A DNA stretch of 51,935 nt from a virus (Duplodnaviria; Caudoviricetes): positions 1 through 51,935 of the IMG/VR virus record IMGVR_UViG_3300024344_000021. One strand, given 5' to 3'. This document shows positions 1,141-49,700 of this stretch, piece by piece. A program made the translations under genes and the position numbers. The notes below the pieces were generated by a model. The model made no database searches. It was given only the letters and a program-made list of their open reading frames with translations, and was not told the DNA's origin. The first letter of the stretch is position 1, and every line of letters starts with the position of its first letter.

Positions 1141-2130
1141 TTAGTCAATGCCGTAGAACGCAGAAACTAATGCCTCTGGACGTAGTACTTTAGCTCCATA
1201 TACATGAAGACCTCGTACTATATCACCAAAGCTATCAGGATCACGAATTACTTCAGTACTAGTAATAGTCTGAGCAGTTGCCGTAGATGACATATGACCT
1301 GCAATACACTTACCTGCTGCATTAGAGGTAGAAGCAATATTGTTAGTCTTGTACATATCAAATCCACGCAACTTACCAGTTGATACTAGTCCGTTACGGA
1401 TTGAACCTTGACCTGCGTTGTAATCAACAGACAGAAGTTTTGAACTGCTTTGTACAAGCTGCTCATAAAACTCTGGGTTTGCTGCGAACCAACGACCTTC
1501 TTCTGGAACATTTTGCTCATCAAGAAGACGAGCCATGTGTGAAAGAACGTCAATAGGATCATGCTCACCAGAAGCAAAACCTATGTCTAGATTACCAGTA
1601 CCATCAAAAGTACCTGCTGCTAGATCAGTTGCGTTGTCAGAACCTAAAATGTGATTAGGGCTAGAAGCTGATACACCTGCAAACATTACTGCAAGTACAC
1701 CTTGATCAAACGCATCTTTAATTGAATAAGCTGCTGAAGATGCAGCAACGTCACGAAAGTTAACGTGTGACATATTAGTTTCAATATCATCTACGATAAA
1801 CTTAAATGCGTTTGCTGTATCAACAACCAAATTAACTTCTTGGTCTGTCAACTTAGTCGCAGTTACGTCTTGTCCCCTTTCATACTGATAAACAGTAATT
1901 TCAGGTTCTTTGATAATTCTTACAGAATCACCGTATGCCGCAATCTCTCCCGCATAATCTGTATTAGTAATTGCTTCTACTACAGATGATTTTCTAAAAA
2001 AGTTTAAAACAGTTTTAGAATAAATTGCAGGTAAGAAATACGAGTTTGTTTGACCCGATACGGAATTTGCAAAGTTTGCATTAGTATCCGTAGACGGTTC
2101 AAAATATTGGTCAGATTGATTATAAGCCAT
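1141..2130 (-). CDS. Major capsid protein (HK97 fold)
   Basis: 329 aa; 'FLPAIYSKTVL', 'ITNTDYAGEI', C-terminal 'RDPDSFGDIVRGLHVYGAKVLRPE'; downstream of scaffold, followed by terminator. Confidence 0.9.
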   Translation of the reverse strand: MAYNQSDQYFEPSTDTNANFANSVSGQTNSYFLPAIYSKTVLNFFRKSSVVEAITNTDYAGEIAAYGDSVRIIKEPEITVYQYERGQDVTATKLTDQEVNLVVDTANAFKFIVDDIETNMSHVNFRDVAASSAAYSIKDAFDQGVLAVMFAGVSASSPNHILGSDNATDLAAGTFDGTGNLDIGFASGEHDPIDVLSHMARLLDEQNVPEEGRWFAANPEFYEQLVQSSSKLLSVDYNAGQGSIRNGLVSTGKLRGFDMYKTNNIASTSNAAGKCIAGHMSSTATAQTITSTEVIRDPDSFGDIVRGLHVYGAKVLRPEALVSAFYGID

Positions 2131-2150
2131 TGTAATATCCTCTCAAAAAC

Positions 2151-3005
2151 TTATTTAGCTATTCTGCCTTCTGCCAACGCTTGTTTGATTTCGTCTTCAT
2201 ACTTATCAAACTGGTCAATAGACATCTTAGCAATTTCACTTTCTGTCCAAACTTTAGGAGCTTTCGCATCCACCGCTGTAGTTTTTGTAGACACCATATC
2301 GGCAGCAGACCTATTCTCCTGTTGCTTGGACTGCCTCTTTTGTGGTGGCTGATTTATTCCCTTTTCCATTTTGTAAAGGTCAATAGCGCGACTAGCTAAA
2401 GTAGCATCACTGTTATTAGCATAAACCCATTTTTGTATATCTTCAGGTTGTTCTTTAGCCCATTCGTGAAAAGCATCATCACCCCGTATATCTTCAAAAT
2501 CTGGATGACGTTCCCTAAGAACTGTTTCAGCTTCTCGTTTCATAATGTCAGCTTCCCGTTCTTGCAAAGCTGTAAGTTGCTGTCTTAGTTCTTCAGTTTG
2601 ATTTTCACTTTGTAAATGAGCTACAGTTTCAACTGTCTCATACAAGTCTGGATTTTTTGCTTTGAACTGCTCTAGTTCTTCTAAAGTTTTAGGAGCCTGA
2701 TACTTAGGTGCTTTTTCAGCAGCCTCCGCAAGAAGCTCTTGTTCCTTTTGTTTAAACTCAGCAATTCTATTGTCGTAATGTTTCTTTAGATCATCATACC
2801 TTTTCTTATAATTTACATCCTTAGAATTTTTAGCAGGGGGCGTTTCTGATTCCTCAGAAGGCGTAGCCTGTTCTTCTTTAGGTCGTGCATAGAATAATCC
2901 ATCGGCATCACCCATTGATGGTTTATCAGGAGTGTGCCAATCTTTCTTTGCATTATAAGGGTTAGGTGCTTTTTCCTCCACAGGATTAGTTTGTGTTTCA
3001 GCCAT
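2151..3005 (-). CDS. Capsid scaffolding protein
   Basis: 284 aa, coiled-coil, 'YKKRYDDLKKH', 'HPDF', C-terminal 'EIKQALAEGRI'; directly upstream of MCP. Confidence 0.8.
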   Translation of the reverse strand: MAETQTNPVEEKAPNPYNAKKDWHTPDKPSMGDADGLFYARPKEEQATPSEESETPPAKNSKDVNYKKRYDDLKKHYDNRIAEFKQKEQELLAEAAEKAPKYQAPKTLEELEQFKAKNPDLYETVETVAHLQSENQTEELRQQLTALQEREADIMKREAETVLRERHPDFEDIRGDDAFHEWAKEQPEDIQKWVYANNSDATLASRAIDLYKMEKGINQPPQKRQSKQQENRSAADMVSTKTTAVDAKAPKVWTESEIAKMSIDQFDKYEDEIKQALAEGRIAK

Positions 3006-3017
3006 AATACTTCCTCC

Positions 3018-3106
3018 ACGGGGCTTGTAAGTTTTAAAAGGTAGCCATTACAATAAATTATTTGTACGGATAATTTATAATGGTGCTTTTACTTCAAGGT
3101 AGCCGT
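3018..3106 (-). promoter_or_regulatory. Candidate symmetric cis-regulatory RNA in scaffold 5' leader
   Basis: ACGG-CTACCTT..AAGCA-CCATTATAAATTAT-loop-ATAATTTATTGTAATGG-CTACCTT..AAGCC-CCGT, directly followed by GGAGG RBS. Confidence 0.55.
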
Positions 3107-4227
3107 TATCGTTGTCTAACATTTAGGCTAGGCATTTGATTAGAAGACATCATTACTTTATTCATGTCATCTTCTAAATCAGTTTCCTCGCCCTTCCTCA
3201 TTAAACCACCATCATAAGCACGTTCAGCTTCATCCATCATACGTTGAAGTCTGTCTGCACCTATTTGATCAGTGGCCTTTCTAGTCATCACAAATTCACC
3301 GTCAGATAATCTGGCAGGTATTGAATCTGAGACTCCCGTTCCCGGCCCTTCAACTTCTCCAGAGCCAGTAAACTCAGAAGCCGTTCCTACAACTTTGTCA
3401 AATATCATACTGAGTTGAGGATCGCCTTCTAAAGCGTTCATTAAATATGTTTGTTCTTCAGGCTGTAAAGCTTCGTTTAATACATAATCAATAAACTCAT
3501 CTTCCATTTGTTCATCTGGAAGTTGTGAAGCTTCTACTGCTGCCATTTCTTCCGGTGGTATATTAGGGTAAGTATCTACTGGAACTTCACCACCCTCTTG
3601 AAATACATCACGGCCTTTAAGAATATCAGCCTGTGTTACTTTTCCATCACCTGTTAAGTCTGGAAACTTACCACCTTCTGCCATCTCTTCTCTATTTACA
3701 GGAAGATCAGCAGTATAAGTTCTACCTTCAAATTCAAAAGTATCTGCTCTTGCTTCTCTTGCTTGTCTAAAAGCATCTTGAAAAGCATTAGCAGAATCAG
3801 TACCTCTTTCATAGGTAGGAAAATCATCAGGGTTAATTCTTTCATCTGGATTTTTTATTTCTACATCTATCTCACCTGCATCAGCAGCTTCAATAATTGT
3901 TTGACCTTTATCAGAATTAGCAGCATATCCAAGTCCTCCTGCTACTACTACTGCTCCTGTCATGTCTTGTGCATAAGCAGCCTGTTTCCTAGTCATAGGT
4001 CTAGTAGCTCTTTGATCAGCAGATAAAGGTTTTAATATTTTTTTAAGAAGTTGAACTAAGGCTCCGGCAGCATAACCCTCTCTTTCAGGAGGAACCATCA
4101 TACCCCCACCCATTTTCTTTTCTTTATCAGGTGCGGATACTGCTACAGTTACAGCAACATCAGGAGCAGCTAGTAAGGCTTCTTTTCTTTTTCTACGTTG
4201 TCTATTTCTTTTAGATTTACTAGCCAT
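3106..4227 (-). CDS. Putative virion protein with xxxGG motifs, EF-hand-like loop and 'GPGTGVSDSIPARLSDGEFV' domain
   Basis: 373 aa; DLTGDGKVTQAD loop; SDSIPARLSDGEFV motif typical of phage tape-measure/internal proteins. Confidence 0.6.
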   Translation of the reverse strand: MASKSKRNRQRRKRKEALLAAPDVAVTVAVSAPDKEKKMGGGMMVPPEREGYAAGALVQLLKKILKPLSADQRATRPMTRKQAAYAQDMTGAVVVAGGLGYAANSDKGQTIIEAADAGEIDVEIKNPDERINPDDFPTYERGTDSANAFQDAFRQAREARADTFEFEGRTYTADLPVNREEMAEGGKFPDLTGDGKVTQADILKGRDVFQEGGEVPVDTYPNIPPEEMAAVEASQLPDEQMEDEFIDYVLNEALQPEEQTYLMNALEGDPQLSMIFDKVVGTASEFTGSGEVEGPGTGVSDSIPARLSDGEFVMTRKATDQIGADRLQRMMDEAERAYDGGLMRKGEETDLEDDMNKVMMSSNQMPSLNVRQR

Positions 4228-4377
4228 TTATTTCCCCTTATGAACTTTCTGCACATCAAAGCTTGCATTTAATGTAGCACCTTTATGTGGCTTAAACTTA
4301 CCAGTATGTTTCATAAGTTTATAGCCACCATTTTTTTGTTTCATCCAATGGTATCCTGCGGGAGCTTTAACTTTCAT
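4228..4377 (-). CDS. Small basic protein, 49 aa (MKVKAPAGYHWMKQ...)
   Basis: Manual translation; stop abuts next start codon. Confidence 0.7.
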   Translation of the reverse strand: MKVKAPAGYHWMKQKNGGYKLMKHTGKFKPHKGATLNASFDVQKVHKGK

Positions 4378-4594
4378 CTTTTGTAAAATCTCTTAGTTTT
4401 AATAAGTCAGTTGCAATTTTATACTTTTCTTCTACTGCTGCTACTTCTGCTATTAGTTTATCTACTTCACCTATTAAGTCAGGATGTTCTGGAACACCTG
4501 TAGCATTAGTTAGATAATTTTCTATATTAACAGCAAGTACTTCTAACTCTGCTGAGTACTTAGAAGCTAAAGCATTAAGTATTAAATCTTTCAT
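4367..4594 (-). CDS. Hypothetical phage protein ('GVPEHPDL' family)
   Basis: 75 aa ORF coupled with neighbours. Confidence 0.7.
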   Translation of the reverse strand: MKDLILNALASKYSAELEVLAVNIENYLTNATGVPEHPDLIGEVDKLIAEVAAVEEKYKIATDLLKLRDFTKDES

Positions 4595-4836
4595 TTTTTT
4601 CTATACTTCCTTGTTTTCTTTGCAATACGTTTGGGTTGTTTTGAGTGTTGCTTTCCTTTTGCAGTATCTTCTCTTTTCTTTCTTGTTGTAGCAGCGTACT
4701 CTTTAGCAGATAAAGACTTTATAGCTTTTTCTGGTAAATATCTTTCACCTGTTTTAGCACTAGGTTTCCCAGACTTAGTACGCCACTTTTGTTTAGTCCA
4801 AGATTTAAGACTTTTTTGTGATTTCTTTAATGCCAT
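4591..4836 (-). CDS. Basic protein, DUF5872-like C-terminal half
   Basis: 'SLKSWTKQKWRT...TGERYLP...KGKQ' motif. Confidence 0.6.
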   Translation of the reverse strand: MALKKSQKSLKSWTKQKWRTKSGKPSAKTGERYLPEKAIKSLSAKEYAATTRKKREDTAKGKQHSKQPKRIAKKTRKYRKK

Positions 4837-4838
4837 AA

Positions 4839-4994
4839 CTAATTAGGTTTAGCAACCTCACCACCCATTGAGTACTTCATTTTGCCACCACCCATCATTT
4901 TCTTTTTATTCATACCACCCATCATCATACCTTTTTTCTTTTTATTCATACCGCCCATCATTTTCTTTTTTCTATCACCATAGTGCTTTGGCAT
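4839..4994 (-). CDS. Lys/Met/Gly-rich peptide, 51 aa (MPKHYGDRKKKMMGGMNKKKKGMMMGGMNKKKMMGGGKMKYSMGGEVAKPN)
   Basis: Manual translation; GAGGA RBS; exactly fills the gap between adjacent genes. Confidence 0.75.
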   Translation of the reverse strand: MPKHYGDRKKKMMGGMNKKKKGMMMGGMNKKKMMGGGKMKYSMGGEVAKPN

Positions 4995-4996
4995 AG

Positions 4997-5299
4997 TTAT
5001 GTCCTCTTAGATTTAGATTTATGTTTATTGCGTAAAACTTCTTTACCTCTTTTAGCTATAGCAGCTTGTTGATTTTTTCCTGCTACTTTAGCTCTTTGTT
5101 CTAATACTGTTAATATTTGTATTTTTCTAGCAAAAGGTTTATTTATATTTTTAACTTTTTTAACAGTATCTCTTGCATCTTGAACTGTAGCATATTTTAT
5201 ACGAACAGTGTCTTTAGGATTTTCATCCGTGTATAAACGTCTTCCAGACCCTTTAGGTTTTTTACCTGTACCTACTTTGGGGTCTTTCTTCTTAGCCAT
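4997..5299 (-). CDS. Basic hypothetical protein ('RRLYTDENPKDT')
   Basis: 100 aa ORF in the late operon. Confidence 0.7.
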   Translation of the reverse strand: MAKKKDPKVGTGKKPKGSGRRLYTDENPKDTVRIKYATVQDARDTVKKVKNINKPFARKIQILTVLEQRAKVAGKNQQAAIAKRGKEVLRNKHKSKSKRT

Positions 5300-10381: not shown

Positions 10382-10751
10382 CTATTACAATCTCTTCTTT
10401 GGCAGGAAGTATAAACAAACCTCCCTCTACCTTATGATTAACATCTAAACTTTCTTTTTTGCCAAGACCTGTTCGGTCTAGTATTGTCTGGGCTGCTTGC
10501 ATTCTAACATTAGCTTGTGGTATAGGATCATCAGAGTCCATAATGTTCACAAGCTTCATAGCAGCTTTCGGAGCAGACTGAGCTAAGATACCGGATGCCA
10601 TTTCGATGATCTCATGTTTGAGTGCTTTAGCGACTTGCCAATGCCCGTTCTCAGCATAACCAGAAAGCTCCGCAGCCTTCCTTAGATCACCCCCTGTAGT
10701 CATCAAGTTGTCCAGAAAGTTTTGTTGTTTAGTTGTTAATTCTTTTGCCAT
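10359..10751 (-). CDS. terS: Terminase small subunit
   Basis: Likely start MAKELTTKQQNF; HTH 'AAELSGYA', 'AAQTILDRTG'; upstream of terL. Confidence 0.75.
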   Translation of the reverse strand: MAKELTTKQQNFLDNLMTTGGDLRKAAELSGYAENGHWQVAKALKHEIIEMASGILAQSAPKAAMKLVNIMDSDDPIPQANVRMQAAQTILDRTGLGKKESLDVNHKVEGGLFILPAKEEIVIDVQAEDE

Positions 10752-10758
10752 TTTATAT

Positions 10759-10787
10759 ATTATACACCTGTTTGAGCAATCTGTCAA
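10759..10787 (-). promoter_or_regulatory. Consensus sigma70 promoter driving the late arm (probably leaderless terS mRNA)
   Basis: TTGACA-17-TATAAT; -10 lies 7 nt from the terS ATG. Confidence 0.8.
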
Positions 10788-10836
10788 GTAAAATCGTATT
10801 TAAATTGTAATAAATTGTAACGTAATACGAAAGTAC

Positions 10837-10865
10837 TTGACAAAATGGATTTCTAGGTGTATAAT
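10837..10865 (+). promoter_or_regulatory. Consensus sigma70 promoter
   Basis: TTGACA-17-TATAAT. Confidence 0.75.
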
Positions 10866-10919
10866 AGTATTATGTAGCCCACCGGGGTGCATATATATAT
10901 CTGTAACCTCCCTCCCCCT

Positions 10920-11180
10920 TAAAGTCTACCAGAGACTTTGTAGTTCCGCATCAAACTAGTTAACGACCAAACCCTCTGAAAATGTATATGATTTAGTATA
11001 TATAGGGGGTCTGGGGGGTGGCCTCCTGCCTAGCCCCTCTTACTTCAAAGACTTGTCAAGATTCCATCATCTTTTTTCATCAAAGACTCTGAAAACTTCA
11101 AAGACTTTTAAAGTGCAAGTCTAGTTTACAGAAAATTCCAAAGACTTTTGAAGTTATAGAGTAAACTTTAAAGACTTTGG
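10920..11180. repeat. AAAGACT(T) repeat cluster with G-tract; candidate terminus/pac or origin region
   Basis: AAAGACT at 11047, 11082, 11100, 11140, 11170; inverted pair at 10921-10939; GGGGGTCTGGGGGGTGG at ~11004. Confidence 0.6.
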
Positions 11181-11239
11181 AAATCTTTATAATTCAATCA
11201 CTTCAATAATTATACCTCCCATTTTTATTAGACTCTATA

Positions 11240-11499
11240 AGTATATAGTATTCTCAGAAATTGTCAAGTAAAAAATTTATTTTTTTTCGATTGACATTGT
11301 TGCGGATTTATGCTATTCGCGTATGTGTGTGTGCATATAAATGTATATTGATTTGTTGCATTCTGTTACAATTTAATTGTTGACAAATTCTGAGAATAGT
11401 TTATTATGGTTGACAGTTTCAAATGATTACTTAAAGGACAAACGAACTAAAAAATAATTTCAAAAACTTCTTGACAATAATTATTTCTTAGTATATTAT
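11240..11499. promoter_or_regulatory. Cluster of sigma70 early promoters, including a divergent pair
   Basis: Plus: TTGACA 11380/TATTAT 11402, TTGACA 11471/TATTAT 11494; minus: TTGACA 11267/TATACT 11245; further TTGACA at 11291, 11410, 11502. Confidence 0.7.
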
Positions 11500-11529
11500 G
11501 ATTGACACTTAAAACTTAAAGGTAACAAT

Positions 11530-11715
11530 ATGAATTTAGCACTTAAAAGGGTCTACAAAAAGCCCCAGTCAAGTAGCATCAAAAAAGACTGGTCTAAAAA
11601 ACATACACTAAGTACTGTAAAATTTCACAGTATTAGAAGTGAGAGAAGTCTGCCGAATCAGAGAGTACGCAGAAATGAATTCGGAGAATTCGAGATATAC
11701 GAAGTATACTCATAA
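11530..11715 (+). CDS. Early hypothetical protein
   Basis: 61 aa; AAGGT RBS; stop immediately before hammerhead 1. Confidence 0.65.
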   Translation: MNLALKRVYKKPQSSSIKKDWSKKHTLSTVKFHSIRSERSLPNQRVRRNEFGEFEIYEVYS

Positions 11716-11779
11716 TCCATACTGATGAGTGCCAGATGGTAACTGGCCGAAACCAAAAGGATTTGGTCTATGGAAACCA
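11716..11779 (+). ncRNA. Type I hammerhead ribozyme 1 (cleavage after GUC at 11768)
   Basis: Stem I UCCAUA/UAUGGA; core CUGAUGA; stem II GCCAG/CUGGC; GAAA; stem III CCAAA/UUUGG; UC cleavage site; loop II UGGU can pair with 3' ACCA. Confidence 0.92.
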
Positions 11780-11797
11780 ATAATATAGGTAAAATCT

Positions 11798-11974
11798 ATG
11801 GGTGCAAAATACGCCATAATTGGTAGAGATTTGGATGCGAGATATTTCGATACTTTTAGTGAAGCGCATTCGTTTTTCTTCAAAGAAATATTAGTGAAAA
11901 AACTAAGGAATGGTTATCCGATTAGAAATATTCATAAGGATATGAAAAATGAATATCCTATTATTAAATTATGA
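11798..11974 (+). CDS. Small early protein, 58 aa (MGAKYAIIGRDLDARYF...)
   Basis: Manual translation; AGGT RBS after ribozyme 1. Confidence 0.65.
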   Translation: MGAKYAIIGRDLDARYFDTFSEAHSFFFKEILVKKLRNGYPIRNIHKDMKNEYPIIKL

Positions 11975-11984
11975 GGTGAAGTCT

Positions 11985-12080
11985 ATGTATGCTCCAACAT
12001 GCAAGGTAGTGAATTACAATGGCAATTTGGTCTGGTATCGTAGGGATACTAAAACTGGTGGATGGACTCGTATATCATAA
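11985..12080 (+). CDS. Small early peptide, 31 aa (MYAPTCKVVNYNGNLVWYRRDTKTGGWTRIS)
   Basis: GAGGTG RBS; stop directly before hammerhead 2. Confidence 0.55.
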   Translation: MYAPTCKVVNYNGNLVWYRRDTKTGGWTRIS

Positions 12081-12082
12081 AA

Positions 12083-12144
12083 CCATACTGATGAGACTAG
12101 ATGGTCACTAGTCGAAACCAAACGGACTTGGTATATGGGAACCA
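12083..12144 (+). ncRNA. Type I hammerhead ribozyme 2 (cleavage after GUA at 12133)
   Basis: Stem I CCAUA/UAUGG; CUGAUGA; stem II GACUAG/CUAGUC; GAAA; stem III CCAA/UUGG; UA site; loop II UGGU/3' ACCA conserved. Confidence 0.92.
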
Positions 12145-12162
12145 ATAATACAGGTGAAGACT

Positions 12163-12351
12163 ATGTTTTTTCTAAAGATATTCTTAACCCATCTGGATTT
12201 TAGATGGAGACTAGCAGAGATACGCACTAATTATTTTAGTGGATCGCATGAGAAATATATTGATGTAGTTGATATTGCTAACAATAAAATTGGACTAAAG
12301 AAGAAAATTAGTCATGGTAAGTATACTAGAGTATGGGTAAAAAAAGTTTAA
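12163..12351 (+). CDS. Small early protein
   Basis: ATG after AGGTG RBS following ribozyme 2 (track ORF 12154-12351). Confidence 0.6.
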   Translation: MFFLKIFLTHLDFRWRLAEIRTNYFSGSHEKYIDVVDIANNKIGLKKKISHGKYTRVWVKKV

Positions 12352-12359
12352 GAAAGTAC

Positions 12360-12387
12360 TTGACAAATATTTTAAACGTGGTATTAT
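12360..12387 (+). promoter_or_regulatory. sigma70 promoter (extended -10)
   Basis: TTGACA-16-TATTAT, with TG at 12379-12380 forming a TGn extension. Confidence 0.6.
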
Positions 12388-12507
12388 ACTTACAAGTTTA
12401 AAGGTATAGGAATATGTGCAAACAAAAATTAATTAAACCGGCTGCCTGTTATACACGGCCATACAAACCCATAAAATTTGATATTAATAAATGGATAAGG
12501 AAACATA

Positions 12508-12729
12508 ATGAAAAAAATAACAATAGGTAAACAGCGTAAAGATGGTAAATTTCCAGTGACATACTGGTATCAAGGTGCTGAGAATATGTTTGGTGGTAGG
12601 GATCATCCAAGTGTATTCAGAAAGATACATAGTCTTGATAAGATTGTAGATCATAATCTATATCATGGTGATATTTTTGAGAATCATTCTGGATTACCAA
12701 ATAACTATTTTAATTTCAAGAGATCATAG
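12508..12729 (+). CDS. Early hypothetical protein
   Basis: 73 aa; AAGGA RBS. Confidence 0.65.
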   Translation: MKKITIGKQRKDGKFPVTYWYQGAENMFGGRDHPSVFRKIHSLDKIVDHNLYHGDIFENHSGLPNNYFNFKRS

Positions 12730-12730
12730 C

Positions 12731-13459
12731 ATGATTAAAATATCTAAGACAAGTAAACTCGGCTGCCATTCGTGGAGTTTACAAGCACTGACTACGTGTC
12801 CTGCTGCTAGGAAACAAGATGGTAGCTTAGTCGATGCCTGTAAAGGATGCTATGCTAGGGGTGGGAACTATAGATTCCCTAACGTAAAAGCACCACGAAT
12901 CCATAATCAAGAGGATTGGAAACGTGATGGATGGGTAGATGATATGGTATCTGAATTGGATAATCACAGATACTTTCGATGGTTTGATAGTGGTGATATG
13001 TATCATATCAAACTAGCAGAGAAAATCTATCAAGTGATGAAGCGTACTCAATGGGTTAAACATTGGTTACCTACTAGACAGTACAAGTTTAGTAAGTTTA
13101 AAGATGTAATTGAACGAATGAATCAACTAGACAATGTAGTGGTTAGACTGTCAAGTGATTCGGTTCAAGGTAAGAAAGTGAATTTCAGTACATGGAGATT
13201 GAATAGTATCAAGACTAGTAGCACAATACTACCAAAAGATACTGATCATGTATTCTCTAGTGATCATACTGGAGTTAAGGTAGATAAGAGTCATGTAGTA
13301 TGTAGGGCATATGAGAACGATGGTAAATGCGGATCATGTAGAGAATGTTGGAATAAAGATACGCACACTATAGCCTATGTAGCGCATGGTAAATCAATGG
13401 GTAAAGTCTTAAAGGATATAAACGAATTAGGCTATACAAGGTTAACTATGGTGGGATAA
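12731..13459 (+). CDS. GP88-like Cys-rich (radical-SAM-like/Fe-S) protein
   Basis: 'TCP...ACKGCYA', 'FRWFDSGD', 'HWLPTR', 'VVRLS', C-terminal 'C.A......CGSCRECW'. Confidence 0.75.
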   Translation: MIKISKTSKLGCHSWSLQALTTCPAARKQDGSLVDACKGCYARGGNYRFPNVKAPRIHNQEDWKRDGWVDDMVSELDNHRYFRWFDSGDMYHIKLAEKIYQVMKRTQWVKHWLPTRQYKFSKFKDVIERMNQLDNVVVRLSSDSVQGKKVNFSTWRLNSIKTSSTILPKDTDHVFSSDHTGVKVDKSHVVCRAYENDGKCGSCRECWNKDTHTIAYVAHGKSMGKVLKDINELGYTRLTMVG

Positions 13460-13909: not shown

Positions 13910-14182
13910 ATGAGTAATGTAGTTGATATAAAAAAGGCTAAGAAAATCAAGAAGATAGCAGATGGTATAACTTCTGATGAGGCTCAAAGGTTATATGATG
14001 AAATGAAAGATGAAATTTTAACCATTGAATCTACCCTAGCAGAAACATTTGACAAATTAAATCCAAGCATGATAGGTGCTGCTGTAGCTATGCACATATT
14101 TACTAAGAGAATATGTGAGGTTTCAGGGTACTCAATGGAGTATATTCAAAAAGGATCAGAGTTTTATTATAAGAGTGAATGA
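13910..14182 (+). CDS. Hypothetical protein
   Basis: 90 aa; GAGGGT RBS. Confidence 0.65.
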   Translation: MSNVVDIKKAKKIKKIADGITSDEAQRLYDEMKDEILTIESTLAETFDKLNPSMIGAAVAMHIFTKRICEVSGYSMEYIQKGSEFYYKSE

Positions 14183-15454: not shown

Positions 15455-15528
15455 GGGTAAGTGACAGAGTGGTTATGTGATGGACTGCAACCCCATTTAT
15501 GTTGGTTCGATTCCAATCTTACCCTCCA
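15455..15528 (+). tRNA. tRNA-Cys (GCA)
   Basis: Acceptor GGGTAAG/CTTACCC, D-loop GG, anticodon loop CTGCAAC, T-arm GTTGG-TTCGATT-CCAAT, U73 discriminator, encoded CCA. Confidence 0.92.
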
Positions 15529-46735: not shown

Positions 46736-49700
46736 TTATCCCATTGCTTGTCCGGCAGTAAAGCCGTACCAAATTGTACCACCATCATTAGTTAAAAATA
46801 CAAATACGTCAACTCCTGCATTTGATGAAGTTAATGTAGGTGCAGTTGCAGCCGGCCAATCAACTGTGTTGGGCCAAGTAATCGTTCTAGCTGAAGAATC
46901 TTGAACTATTTTTAATGTCCATATACACGCTTCAGTAGGAGGATTACTAAATGTAAAAGTAGTATTTTCAGTAAGAGTGTGTAAAAAATTTGTACCATCT
47001 CTTAAATTTACAGTAGTTGCATTAGAGGAAGAGGTTACAGTTACAGCTTCTTCATGTATACCACCTGTAAATCTTACAACATTATTAGCATCTGCTGATA
47101 CAACCTTAGAAGCTGCTGTGCTTCCTAGTGTTGCTAAATCTAAATAGTTTAGCTCTGCTGTAGTTGCTGTAACCCCATCAAGGATATTAAGTTCAGCAGC
47201 AGTTGATGTTACCCCATCTAATATATTAAGTTCTGCTGTAGTACTTGTAACACCATCAAGGATATTAAGTTCAGTAGCAGTACTTGTAACACCATCAAGA
47301 ATGTTAAGTTCAGCAGCAGTACTAGTTACATTAGTTCCTCCAATGTCTAAAGTAGTTACAGAAATTTCTCCTGCTACAGTAGCTATACCATCAGCTAATG
47401 TTATTAAATCAGTATCATCTGTGTGTCCTATAGTTGTACCATTAACAATAACATTATCAACTGTTAAAGTTGTTAAAGTTCCTAAACTAGTAATATTAGA
47501 TTGTGCTGCTCCTGTAACTGTAGCTGCTGTGCCTGATACATTACCTGTAACATCTCCTGTTAATGGCCCTGCAAAAGCATCTGCTGTGACTGTTCCATCA
47601 AAAAAAGCATCTTTAAATTCATTATCAGATTTACCAAGATCAATAATATTATCAGAACCGGGATACAATGCACCGTCTTCTAAAATTAATTGTTTTTCAT
47701 TTCCTGCATAAAAGTTAATTTTATCAGCATCTTCAAAATCTATTTTTGTTTGATCGTCTTCACCAATCTTTATATCAGTTGCAAGTAATGAAGTGATTCC
47801 TGTTTGTGCTGCGTCTACTGTAAAAGTTAAATCATACGGATCACCATCTGTACCATTATCCGTATCTGTCCAGTTTGTAGTTATTCCTGAACCAATAAAT
47901 TTTACTTCTTTAGCATTAGAAACAGTAACTTCTGTACCATCATCATCTTCAAGAACAAACTCTGTACTGTCAACCTGAGAGTCTACATAAGCTTTAATAG
48001 ATTGTTGTGTGGCTAATTTAGTTGCTGAATCAGAAGCCATGTTATCTTCATCAAGAACTGCTGAACCACTTACTCCAGTATTTAAAACAGGACTTGTTAG
48101 TGTTTTATTTGTAAGAGTATCAGTAGTTGCTTTACCTACTAAAGTGTCTGTAGATGGAGGTAGAGTTAGTGTTACGTTACCACTATAATCACTATGCGCT
48201 GCTGATTGTAGTTGTGTATAGTGAGCATTAGAAGATTCACAATAAAACTTAACATTAGATACTGAACCTGCATTTTTTAATACAATTTCTCCAGATTGAA
48301 TATCTACATTACCATCTAATCTAACTACACCTGTTCCATTTGGAGTTAAAGCAATATTACCATTTGATGTAGAAGTTAAAGCATTTCCATTAACATCTAA
48401 GTCACCACCTAGTTGTGGTGTAGAATCATCTGCTACATTTGAAATAGCTCCTGATGAAGCTAGTCCTGAAACCAATGTGCTTCTTGCAATTTTCTTTAAT
48501 CCACCACCAGAAGTATCTACTGCAAGTAATACATCATCATTAGCTACTGTAGATATTTCTGACAAATCTCCTACTGCTGTAGGATTAAAATTAGTACCGT
48601 CTGCTATTAGTAAATGTCCAGATGTATTAGTACCCATCGTAAGATCATCACCACTAATAGTAAGATCACCAGAAAGAGTAAGATTTCTTATACCTGTATA
48701 ATCTTTATTAGAATCTAATACAACTGCTTTAGAAGCTACGGCTGTTCCTACTGCGGTGCTGCCTAAGTCTAAATAATTTAATTCTCCTACAACTGCGGTA
48801 ACACCATCTAAAGTGTTAAGCTCTGCTGCTGTACTCGTTACTCCATCAAGAATATTAAGTTCTGCTGCGGTGCTTGTAACACCATCAAGTATATTAAGTT
48901 CTGCTGTGGTAGCTGTTACACCATCAAGAAGATTTAATTCTGCTGTAGTACTAGTTACACCATCTAAAATGTTTAGCTCGGCTGTGCTTGAAGTAACCCC
49001 ATCAAGTATATTTAATTCTGCTGCCGTTGAAGTAACTCCATCCATAATGTTAAGTTCTGCTGTAGTTGCAGTAACTCCATCCATTATGTTAAGTTCTGAA
49101 GCTGTAGCAGTTACTCCATCTAATATATTTATTTCTGCTGCTGTTGCACTAATAGCTGTGCCATTAAAATTTATAGCATCTAAATACGCTGTACCATCAA
49201 TATATAAATCACGCCATTCTTGACTAGAAGAACCTAAATCATAAGCACTATCTGTATTAGGAATAATATTACTGTTTACATCTGCACCAAATACAACATT
49301 GTCATCTGCTGCATCTCCTAAAGTAAGAGTACCTCCATTAAAAGTTGTAGTGCCTGTTACCGTAAGATTCCCACCAACAGATACATTACCTGTAGTTGTA
49401 ATACTATCTATATAAGCATCTTTAAAATATTTACTTGATGTTCCTAAATCTAAGTCACTATCAGCATTGGGTACTAACGCTCCATCTTGTAATACCATTT
49501 GTTTTGCAGCAGCACTAGAAACTTCTACATAGAACTCCCAAGTATTACTAGTAGTAAGAATTTTATTTAAAAAATCTTGATCACCAATAGTATGTATATT
49601 GCCGCCTTCCCCGGCAGTACCATCGTGTTGATGACCTGTAGTACTACTAGAAGCATATGAAAAAGCAGTTAGTAGTCTATTAAATTCATCATTAAATAAA

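Follow-up and report, generated by a model that had tools for sequence, protein, structure and literature searches.

Two predicted type I hammerhead ribozymes between the small genes of a marine podovirus and their probable role in self-processing of a polycistronic message

What do two hammerhead-like sequences do when they stand between the small genes of a phage operon? The question was raised by a stretch of viral DNA of 51,935 nucleotides (hereafter the window), the IMG/VR virus record IMGVR_UViG_3300024344_000021, which is 99% complete and has a G+C content of about 37%. The phage carries a T7-like replication module, a ribonucleotide reductase and an SU10-type portal and adaptor, and its capsid protein best matches that of Pelagibacter phage HTVC115P (59.7% amino acid identity), followed by those of other HMO-2011-type podoviruses. 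It is a lytic-type marine podovirus of a group related to the pelagiphages. An earlier interpretation made from the letters of the DNA (the sequence-only reading) had placed tandem hammerheads in its early operon and proposed that they excise a two-gene RNA, by protein-free processing of the message to stabilised 5'-OH mRNAs or to a circular mRNA for host-takeover peptides.

The operon comprises four small ORFs on the plus strand, preceded by two sigma-70-like promoters, TTGACA-16-TATTAT at 11380..11407 and TTGACA-17-TATTAT at 11471..11499. Both agree with the consensus at 11 of 12 positions. The first was assigned by consensus match only; the second lies about 30 nt before ORF1 and is kept in the related contigs L002, L008, and L079. 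ORF1 (61 aa, 11530..11715) ends with a TAA at 11713-11715 and is followed by a 58-aa ORF (11798..11974, with the SD AGGU 8 nt upstream), a 31-aa ORF (11985..12080, with the SD GAGGUGA and the stop codon TAA at 12078-12080), and ORF4 (62 aa, 12163..12351). The next sigma-70-like promoter, again a consensus match, is found at 12360..12387. No terminator-like site was detected in the interval 10700-13000, including the stretch between the operon and the promoter at 12360.

Comparison with L008 revealed 14 synonymous and 3 non-synonymous codon differences in ORF1, 7 and 1 in ORF4, and 3 and 0 in the 31-aa ORF, the protein product of which is the same in both contigs. As the differences are mostly synonymous, ORF1, the 31-aa ORF, and ORF4 are taken to be real genes. 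Homologues of ORF1 are also present in L001, L079, and L082. The 58-aa ORF is an orphan; the only copies detected are that of the near-identical contig L002 and, among 5.8 billion proteins, a single cluster of 98% identity. PHROGs and Pfam assigned no family to any of the four small ORFs, and the operon region gave no match by blastn against 50,697 GenBank phage records. This hammerhead-bearing run of small ORFs can reasonably be regarded as an early operon. A host-takeover role of the encoded peptides is without basis, given the orphan 58-aa ORF and the lack of PHROGs or Pfam matches for all four.

The first candidate ribozyme, HH1 (11716..11779, plus strand), starts without a gap after the TAA of ORF1. 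Its stem I consists of 6 bp (11716-11721 with 11769-11774) and its core elements are CUGAUGA at 11722-11728 and GAAA at 11749-11752. Stem II opens with the pair G11729-C11748 and a bulged U11730, continues as GCCAG/CUGGC, and is closed by the loop AUGGUAA; the bulged U follows pair 10.1-11.1, where an additional nucleotide is present in many members of the family. CCAAA/UUUGG forms stem III; the last base of the GUC site is 11768, and the cut is predicted between C11768 and U11769. The pseudoknot partner ACCA is located at 11776-11779, and the ATG of the 58-aa ORF at 11798 leaves a leader of 29 nt behind the predicted cut.

The second candidate, HH2 (12083..12144, plus strand), begins two bases past the TAA of the 31-aa ORF. 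It has a 5-bp stem I (12083-12087 with 12134-12138), the core elements CUGAUGA (12088-12094) and GAAA, a stem II of GACUAG/CUAGUC with the loop AUGGUCA, and a stem III of CCAA/UUGG. The site GUA ends at 12133, the cut is predicted between A12133 and U12134, and ACCA follows at 12141-12144. The ATG of ORF4 at 12163 again leaves a 29-nt leader. In both copies ACCA stands 2-3 nt behind stem I, and the two predicted cuts bound the interval 11769-12133, i.e., 365 nt that hold the 58-aa and 31-aa ORFs.

Both copies contain all the core residues of the hammerhead class, C3 U4 G5 A6 N7 G8 A9, G12 A13 A14, the pair A15.1-U16.1, and H17, as listed in the accessible part of Perreault et al. 2011 (PMC3088659). 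The core-adjacent pairs 1.1-2.1, 10.1-11.1, and 15.1-16.1 are U-A, G-C, and A-U in both, and stem I is open while stems II and III are closed by loops, as in type I topology, according to the sequence and to the alignment with the covariance model R1 described below. Stem II stays paired across the two copies through compensatory changes. The sequence-only reading is thus borne out in its description of the locus: two intergenic type I hammerheads with complete cores, three stems, and GUC and GUA sites, stems II that differ and still pair (GCCAG/CUGGC versus GACUAG/CUAGUC), a start 0-2 nt past a stop codon and ahead of a ribosome-binding site, and predicted cuts after 11768 and 12133 that enclose the 365-nt interval with its two ORFs.

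Thermodynamic folding gave a mixed picture. The minimum-energy fold of HH2 is the hammerhead fold (-13.6 kcal/mol), while for HH1 folded on its own it has stems II and III mispaired (-17.3 kcal/mol), in both cases with an energy model that ignores the pseudoknot and the core. When HH2 was folded with 100 nt of context, its cleavage-site strand paired with the end of the upstream 31-aa ORF in an 11-bp helix. The folding z-scores were weak (-1.0 to -2.2), and folding is a poor guide for a pseudoknotted ribozyme.

Rfam hammerhead models had been suggested as a check of the two copies. At gathering thresholds, Rfam found no ribozyme in the window and nothing but a tRNA. The best sub-threshold matches were to the RAGATH-1 hammerhead RF03152 at 24.3 and 24.2 bits, compared to a cut-off of 56.3, and a scan with the clan CL00010 / RF00163 at E-values up to 10 kept HH9 as the sole clan member, at 13.9 bits versus 52. 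RF00163 and RF03152 represent the same ribozyme class as the window copies, but these fall below both gathering thresholds. As the Rfam standard does not call HH1 and HH2, independent evidence was built from a family alignment and from R1.

The search pattern for the family fixed only the core and the loop-II sequence AUGGU. It was found in 72 viral contigs, giving 75 matches with those of the window, 72 of which could be closed into a hammerhead with a simple parser. After L040 and L067 had been dropped as spurious and duplicates removed, the alignment A1 held 50 sequences (the two window copies and 48 distinct homologues; 49 distinct rows); it leaves out L039, which has a very long stem III, and L002, which is identical to the window. 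Over the 49 distinct rows, 94.6% of the cells pair, whereas shifting the 3' partner by 1-3 columns lowers this share to 29-41%. Both sides have changed in 12 of the 16 pairs, and the covariation score of 0.626 (0.167 for shuffled alignments) was reached in none of 500 shuffles. Pairing of stems I and III is partly built in, because both stems helped to select the sequences of the alignment. Stem II, which played no role in the selection, is 99% paired, with three of its four pairs changed on both sides.

The covariance model R1, built from the 50 homologues of A1, gave 120 matches in 68 of the 72 viral contigs, among them loop-II variants outside the original pattern. Where the loop is not UGGU, tails that match it were found, as in UAGU/ACUA, UAGC/GCUA, GGAU/AUCC, and GAAU/AUUC. 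Eighteen such loops form a helix of 3.9 bp on average with their own tails, compared to 2.6 bp with UGGU-type tails, and when tails were shuffled among the 78 distinct loop-tail pairs the observed mean was reached in 0 of 500 trials. As the tails follow the loops and shuffles never match them, we take UGGU/ACCA, which the sequence-only reading had noticed in both copies, to be a real covarying tertiary pairing. Covariation thus supports all three predicted stems and the predicted pseudoknot. In other hammerheads, such a pseudoknot pairing is critical for fast cleavage according to the accessible text of Perreault et al. 2011 (PMC3088659).

In the window, R1 scored HH1 at 75.6 bits (E-value 3e-20) and HH2 at 71.4 bits (E-value 6e-19), and the next match reached 18.1 bits. 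That match, at 13967-14029, is inside an ORF, has broken stems II and III, and was dismissed as a chance hit. The bare motif CTGATGA-N(10-35)-GAAAC occurs three times in the window compared to 0.28 expected, a number reached in none of 100 shuffles; its third occurrence, at 48451, is without stems and was likewise attributed to chance. Judging by these results, the window holds exactly two hammerheads.

In 13 tested loci, Rfam passed only one of 37 R1 matches, namely L046:1140-1199, which scored 36.7 bits with RF00163 at a cut-off of 34. Curated Rfam models under-detect this phage hammerhead group, and since their thresholds pass one match in 37, phage annotation pipelines will overlook such elements. 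In bacterial genomes, the bare pattern is mostly due to chance, with R1 matches in 7 of the 80 fetched loci that contain it, versus 68 of 72 in the viral collection.

The unmet Rfam thresholds and this mostly accidental occurrence in bacterial genomes, with R1 matches in so few of the loci, might suggest that the two copies are chance motifs or dead relics without activity, and damaged copies do exist in relatives: L079 has a swapped 15.1-16.1 pair and L008 a 5-nt insertion in stem III. However, every core residue and all three stems are present in both window copies, their R1 scores are high, the compensatory changes keep stem II paired between them, and R1 confirms nearly all of the pattern-matching viral loci. 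We regard the probability of chance or decay as negligible, and conclude from the sequence evidence that HH1 and HH2 are real type I hammerhead ribozymes with a pseudoknot that are predicted to cleave themselves.

The position of these elements relative to genes was assessed in 89 distinct contexts. An SD-led start codon of an ORF of at least 25 codons lies 10-90 nt past the predicted cut in 81 of them, compared to 19 in the opposite-strand control, and the distance from cut to start has a median of 31 nt (IQR 29-36). Upstream, a frame of at least 40 codons ends between -6 and +4 nt of stem I in 47 contexts, compared to two of 89 in the control. In 27 of the 68 loci, some of which are near-duplicates, arrays of 2-6 copies were found on one strand at a spacing of 102-3660 nt; with its distance of 365 nt, the pair in the window is typical of the small arrays. 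Other self-cleaving classes also occur in such operons: L039 has a Pistol ribozyme, and L020 a hammerhead of type II. By sequence and arrangement, HH1 and HH2 belong to a widespread class of phage hammerheads.

The close fit between stop codon and stem I could mean that the ribozyme is gated by translation: a ribosome terminating on the upstream gene would cover stem I and the core, and upstream translation would tune cleavage and the release of the downstream leader. The 47 contexts with an upstream frame ending at stem I, and the 11-bp helix between the end of the 31-aa ORF and the cleavage-site strand of HH2, which a translating ribosome would melt, are consistent with such a switch. However, the alternative helix is absent for HH1, and the tight spacing may reflect nothing but genome compaction. 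In the literature examined, we met no experimental precedent for a translation-gated hammerhead switch, and we consider it hardly probable that the module works in this way.

How far the arrangement extends among relatives was examined in 80 kin loci gathered via the downstream GP88-like protein. R1 matches were confined to the closest kin, and 72 of the 80 loci, some with little upstream DNA, had none. L077 (the same contig as L002, identical to the window) carries two hammerheads and the ORF1-ORF4 content of the window. One hammerhead is present in each of L078 (= L008), where ORF1 and ORF4 are separated by the hammerhead and, directly behind it, the 31-aa ORF; L079, where the hammerhead and two other ORFs stand between ORF1 and ORF4; and L080 (= L001), where an HH2-like copy precedes a different ORF of 51 aa. 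L082, whose marker protein is 94% identical, has no hammerhead, and its ORF1 homologue is followed directly by the ORF4 homologue. L096, L097, and L104 gave weak R1 matches only, and HTVC115P, the closest isolate, gave none in bases 1-50000 of 54,819. Five copies (both of the window and those of L001, L008, and L079) share a conserved module that extends from stem I to the AUG, while the ORF behind it differs among the window, L001, L008, and L079. With zero, one, or two copies and differing gene content in the kin, the ribozymes are accessory in this lineage and associated with a variable cassette region.

These observations bear on the idea that the hammerhead, the 29-nt leader, and the SD form a portable cassette boundary that travels with small orphan genes. 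It would allow context-free expression of acquired genes and perhaps provide homology for exchange, so that cleavage would be the means and gene turnover the selected effect. The differing content between ORF1 and ORF4 in L082, L008, L079, and the window, the different 51-aa ORF behind the hammerhead of L001, the orphan nature of the 58-aa ORF, the conserved module, and the closer similarity of HH2 to the L001 copy than to HH1 all fit this idea. On the other hand, the comparison consists of five related loci without mapped recombination breakpoints, and conserved intergenic sequence beside variable genes is common in phages that have no ribozymes there. Moreover, this explanation adds a layer to RNA processing and does not compete with it. 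As the principal account of the module, we regard it as unlikely.

A further possibility concerns the fate of the excised piece. The 365-nt RNA could close on itself, by the reverse hammerhead reaction or with a host RtcB-type ligase, to give a nuclease-resistant circular mRNA for the 58-aa and 31-aa proteins; if true, a DNA phage would possess a circular messenger made by ribozymes. The geometry allows it. HH1 and HH2 have CCAUA/UAUGG of stem I and the ACCA tail in common, so that the two ends of the excised RNA could together form a hammerhead again. Computed through the identical copy L002, the 5' end left by HH1 docks into HH2 with 5 bp and the 4-bp pseudoknot, the same as the substrate strand of HH2 itself, and the ends of the window pair would thus be able to restore the active site. 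The 5'-OH and 2',3'-cyclic phosphate ends are also of the kind that RtcB joins. Of 37 neighbouring pairs in other arrays, 22 are compatible, with 5 bp or more when G-U pairs are counted, versus 17% between loci, but such an excess is also expected from paralogues that arose by duplication. The other 15 pairs have incompatible ends with at most 3 bp, which argues that end compatibility is not a conserved requirement.

The relatives point in the same direction. A single hammerhead cannot make a circle, and the close kin have one or none. Neither the paired arrangement nor the end compatibility is conserved among relatives. A scan of 46 ORFs, which partly covers the ORFs below about 90 aa elsewhere in the genome, revealed no family of RNA ligases, RtcB, or kinases. 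Circular or spliced products of tandem prophage hammerheads were sought by Perreault et al. 2011 (PMC3088659) and, according to the accessible part of that paper, none were detected ("data not shown"). We regard self-closure of the 365-nt RNA, whether through reverse cleavage or host RtcB, as improbable, and translation of the two tiny orphan proteins from the resulting circle as quite improbable.

Taken together, the arrangement is best explained by protein-free self-processing of the mRNA between cistrons and insulation of these cistrons from one another, an explanation that we consider probable. This part of the sequence-only reading stands, with co-directional hammerheads between cistrons and just before ribosome-binding sites, but the circle is unsupported. 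What has been observed directly are the sequence features, the covariation in the family, the fixed geometry, and the conservation of the module despite changing genes.

According to this processing model, the host-type promoters would drive an early message of about 870 nt that encodes four small proteins and includes both ribozymes. Each ribozyme would fold right behind the upstream stop codon, be locked by the 4-bp pseudoknot between UGGU of loop II and the ACCA tail just 3' of stem I, and then cut itself. Because of the type I topology, the whole ribozyme body would stay on the upstream fragment, providing it with a structured 3' end that carries a 2',3'-cyclic phosphate. The downstream mRNA would begin with a 5'-OH and the 29-nt SD-bearing leader, which retains the 3' strand of stem I and the tail and is about as long as the 30S footprint. 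The products, formed without the help of proteins, would be ORF1, the two-gene RNA, and ORF4 plus whatever follows. As each piece would receive a defined end, the stability and translation of the fragments would be independent of their neighbours, and the module would act as a natural insulator. We infer that cleavage takes place in vivo and that it influences stability and translation. Whether a 5'-OH end stabilises or destabilises the mRNA depends on the RNases of the host; the 5'-OH product of glmS, for example, is degraded by RNase J1.

In this near-complete genome of a marine podovirus, the locus offers a clean minimal case, in which consensus promoters are followed by four small genes and two ribozymes. 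As the geometry is fixed in 89 contexts, processing becomes a testable design rule, in which the upstream mRNA would be capped at its 3' end by the ribozyme body, while the downstream one would start with a minimal leader of approximately the ribosome footprint.

The arrangement and the processing hypothesis have been in print since 2011, and the known picture of such elements is unchanged. Perreault et al. 2011 (PMC3088659), in the part of the paper available, report hammerheads by the hundreds in bacteria, many located close to integrase genes of prophages, and pseudoknots in about 40% of all the hammerhead representatives examined. Cleavage by the tandem hammerheads of prophages was observed in vitro as well as in E. 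coli, and it was proposed that long phage transcripts are processed by them into single-gene mRNAs. [quoted passage not shown] Unlike the prophage hammerheads of that study, which lie next to integrases, they are located in a promoter-proximal operon of small genes in a lytic-type marine podovirus. Later papers, as far as their accessible text goes, name bacteria and phages as the typical setting of type I hammerheads (PMC7761336 among them), and a 2019 review still calls the purpose of phage hammerheads undefined. In the literature searched, we found no description of the geometry of stop codon, ribozyme, leader of about 31 nt, and AUG, although the illustrations and supplementary material of Perreault et al. 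2011, outside the search, may show it, and in the same incomplete literature no paper on hammerheads in this phage group was found.

Among other known systems, the RNase III sites of the T7 early transcript are a close functional parallel, as there too cuts between cistrons divide a polycistronic early phage RNA into separate mRNAs, which is what we propose here. In T7, a host protein enzyme cuts a double-stranded RNA hairpin and leaves 5'-phosphate and 3'-OH ends, whereas the RNA of the window would cut itself and leave a 5'-OH and a 2',3'-cyclic phosphate. RiboJ, a synthetic insulator made of a satellite-RNA hammerhead and a hairpin, is used behind promoters. Like RiboJ, the window module would remove variable upstream RNA by means of a hammerhead just before the ribosome-binding site, so that expression becomes free of context; unlike RiboJ, it is natural, of type I, locked by a pseudoknot, and situated between cistrons. 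Finally, in viroid-like RNAs and retrozymes, as described in the accessible part of PMC7761336, paired hammerheads are mostly of type III, the RNAs replicate or retrotranspose, and circles have been demonstrated. As in these RNAs, two like-oriented hammerheads in the window bracket a unit-length RNA whose ends can rebuild the ribozyme (PMC7761336, same part), but they do so in the operon of a DNA phage, belong to type I, and occur as a pair that is not conserved.

The upstream ORF ends in UCAUAA in four of the five related modules, that is, before both window hammerheads (11707-11715 for HH1 and 12072-12080 for HH2) and in the close relatives L001 and L008. Because this ending is common to most of the modules, the conserved hammerhead unit may start a few bases within the upstream gene.

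At HH2, the 3'-terminal codons of the 31-aa reading frame (12067-12077) could form 11 base pairs, three of them G-U, with the strand carrying the HH2 cleavage site (12129-12139). When the 101-nt HH2 context was folded, the minimum-energy structure contained this helix, and on this folding model it is possible that it represents a translation-sensitive alternative structure. No counterpart of the helix was seen by energy folding at HH1.

Two of the hammerheads in the close relatives deviate from the usual form. In the L079 copy (2481-2550, + strand), a U-A pair replaces the normally invariant A15.1-U16.1 pair (GAAU ... GAC site). The change is a compensated double change of the core and, judged from the sequence, the ribozyme may be a weakened variant or one of altered specificity. 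In the HH1 homologue of L008 (14467-14541, - strand), five extra nucleotides, GCUGU, are inserted into the 5' strand of stem III immediately 3' of C15.2. R1, the covariance model built from 50 homologues, nonetheless gives this copy 64.5 bits.

Elsewhere in the window, the stretch that separates the small-terminase operon from the small-gene operon carries two divergent sigma-70 consensus promoters (10759-10865), which face away from each other and each match the consensus perfectly, at 12/12 positions. A tRNA-Cys (GCA) gene (15455-15528, + strand) is located among early or middle genes and was also found in L008.

A Clostridia MAG contig, L216, contains six R1 matches on a single strand (1350-5232, +), forming an array within 3.9 kb that is presumably located in a prophage. 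On the viral contig L039, a Pistol ribozyme (2234-2301, + strand; 62.6 bits, Rfam gathering) was detected shortly upstream of three type I hammerheads, and on another, L020, the type I copy is preceded at a distance of 2 kb by a type II hammerhead (1084-1147, + strand; 41.9 bits). By these sequence matches, different predicted self-cleaving classes occur together in these operons.
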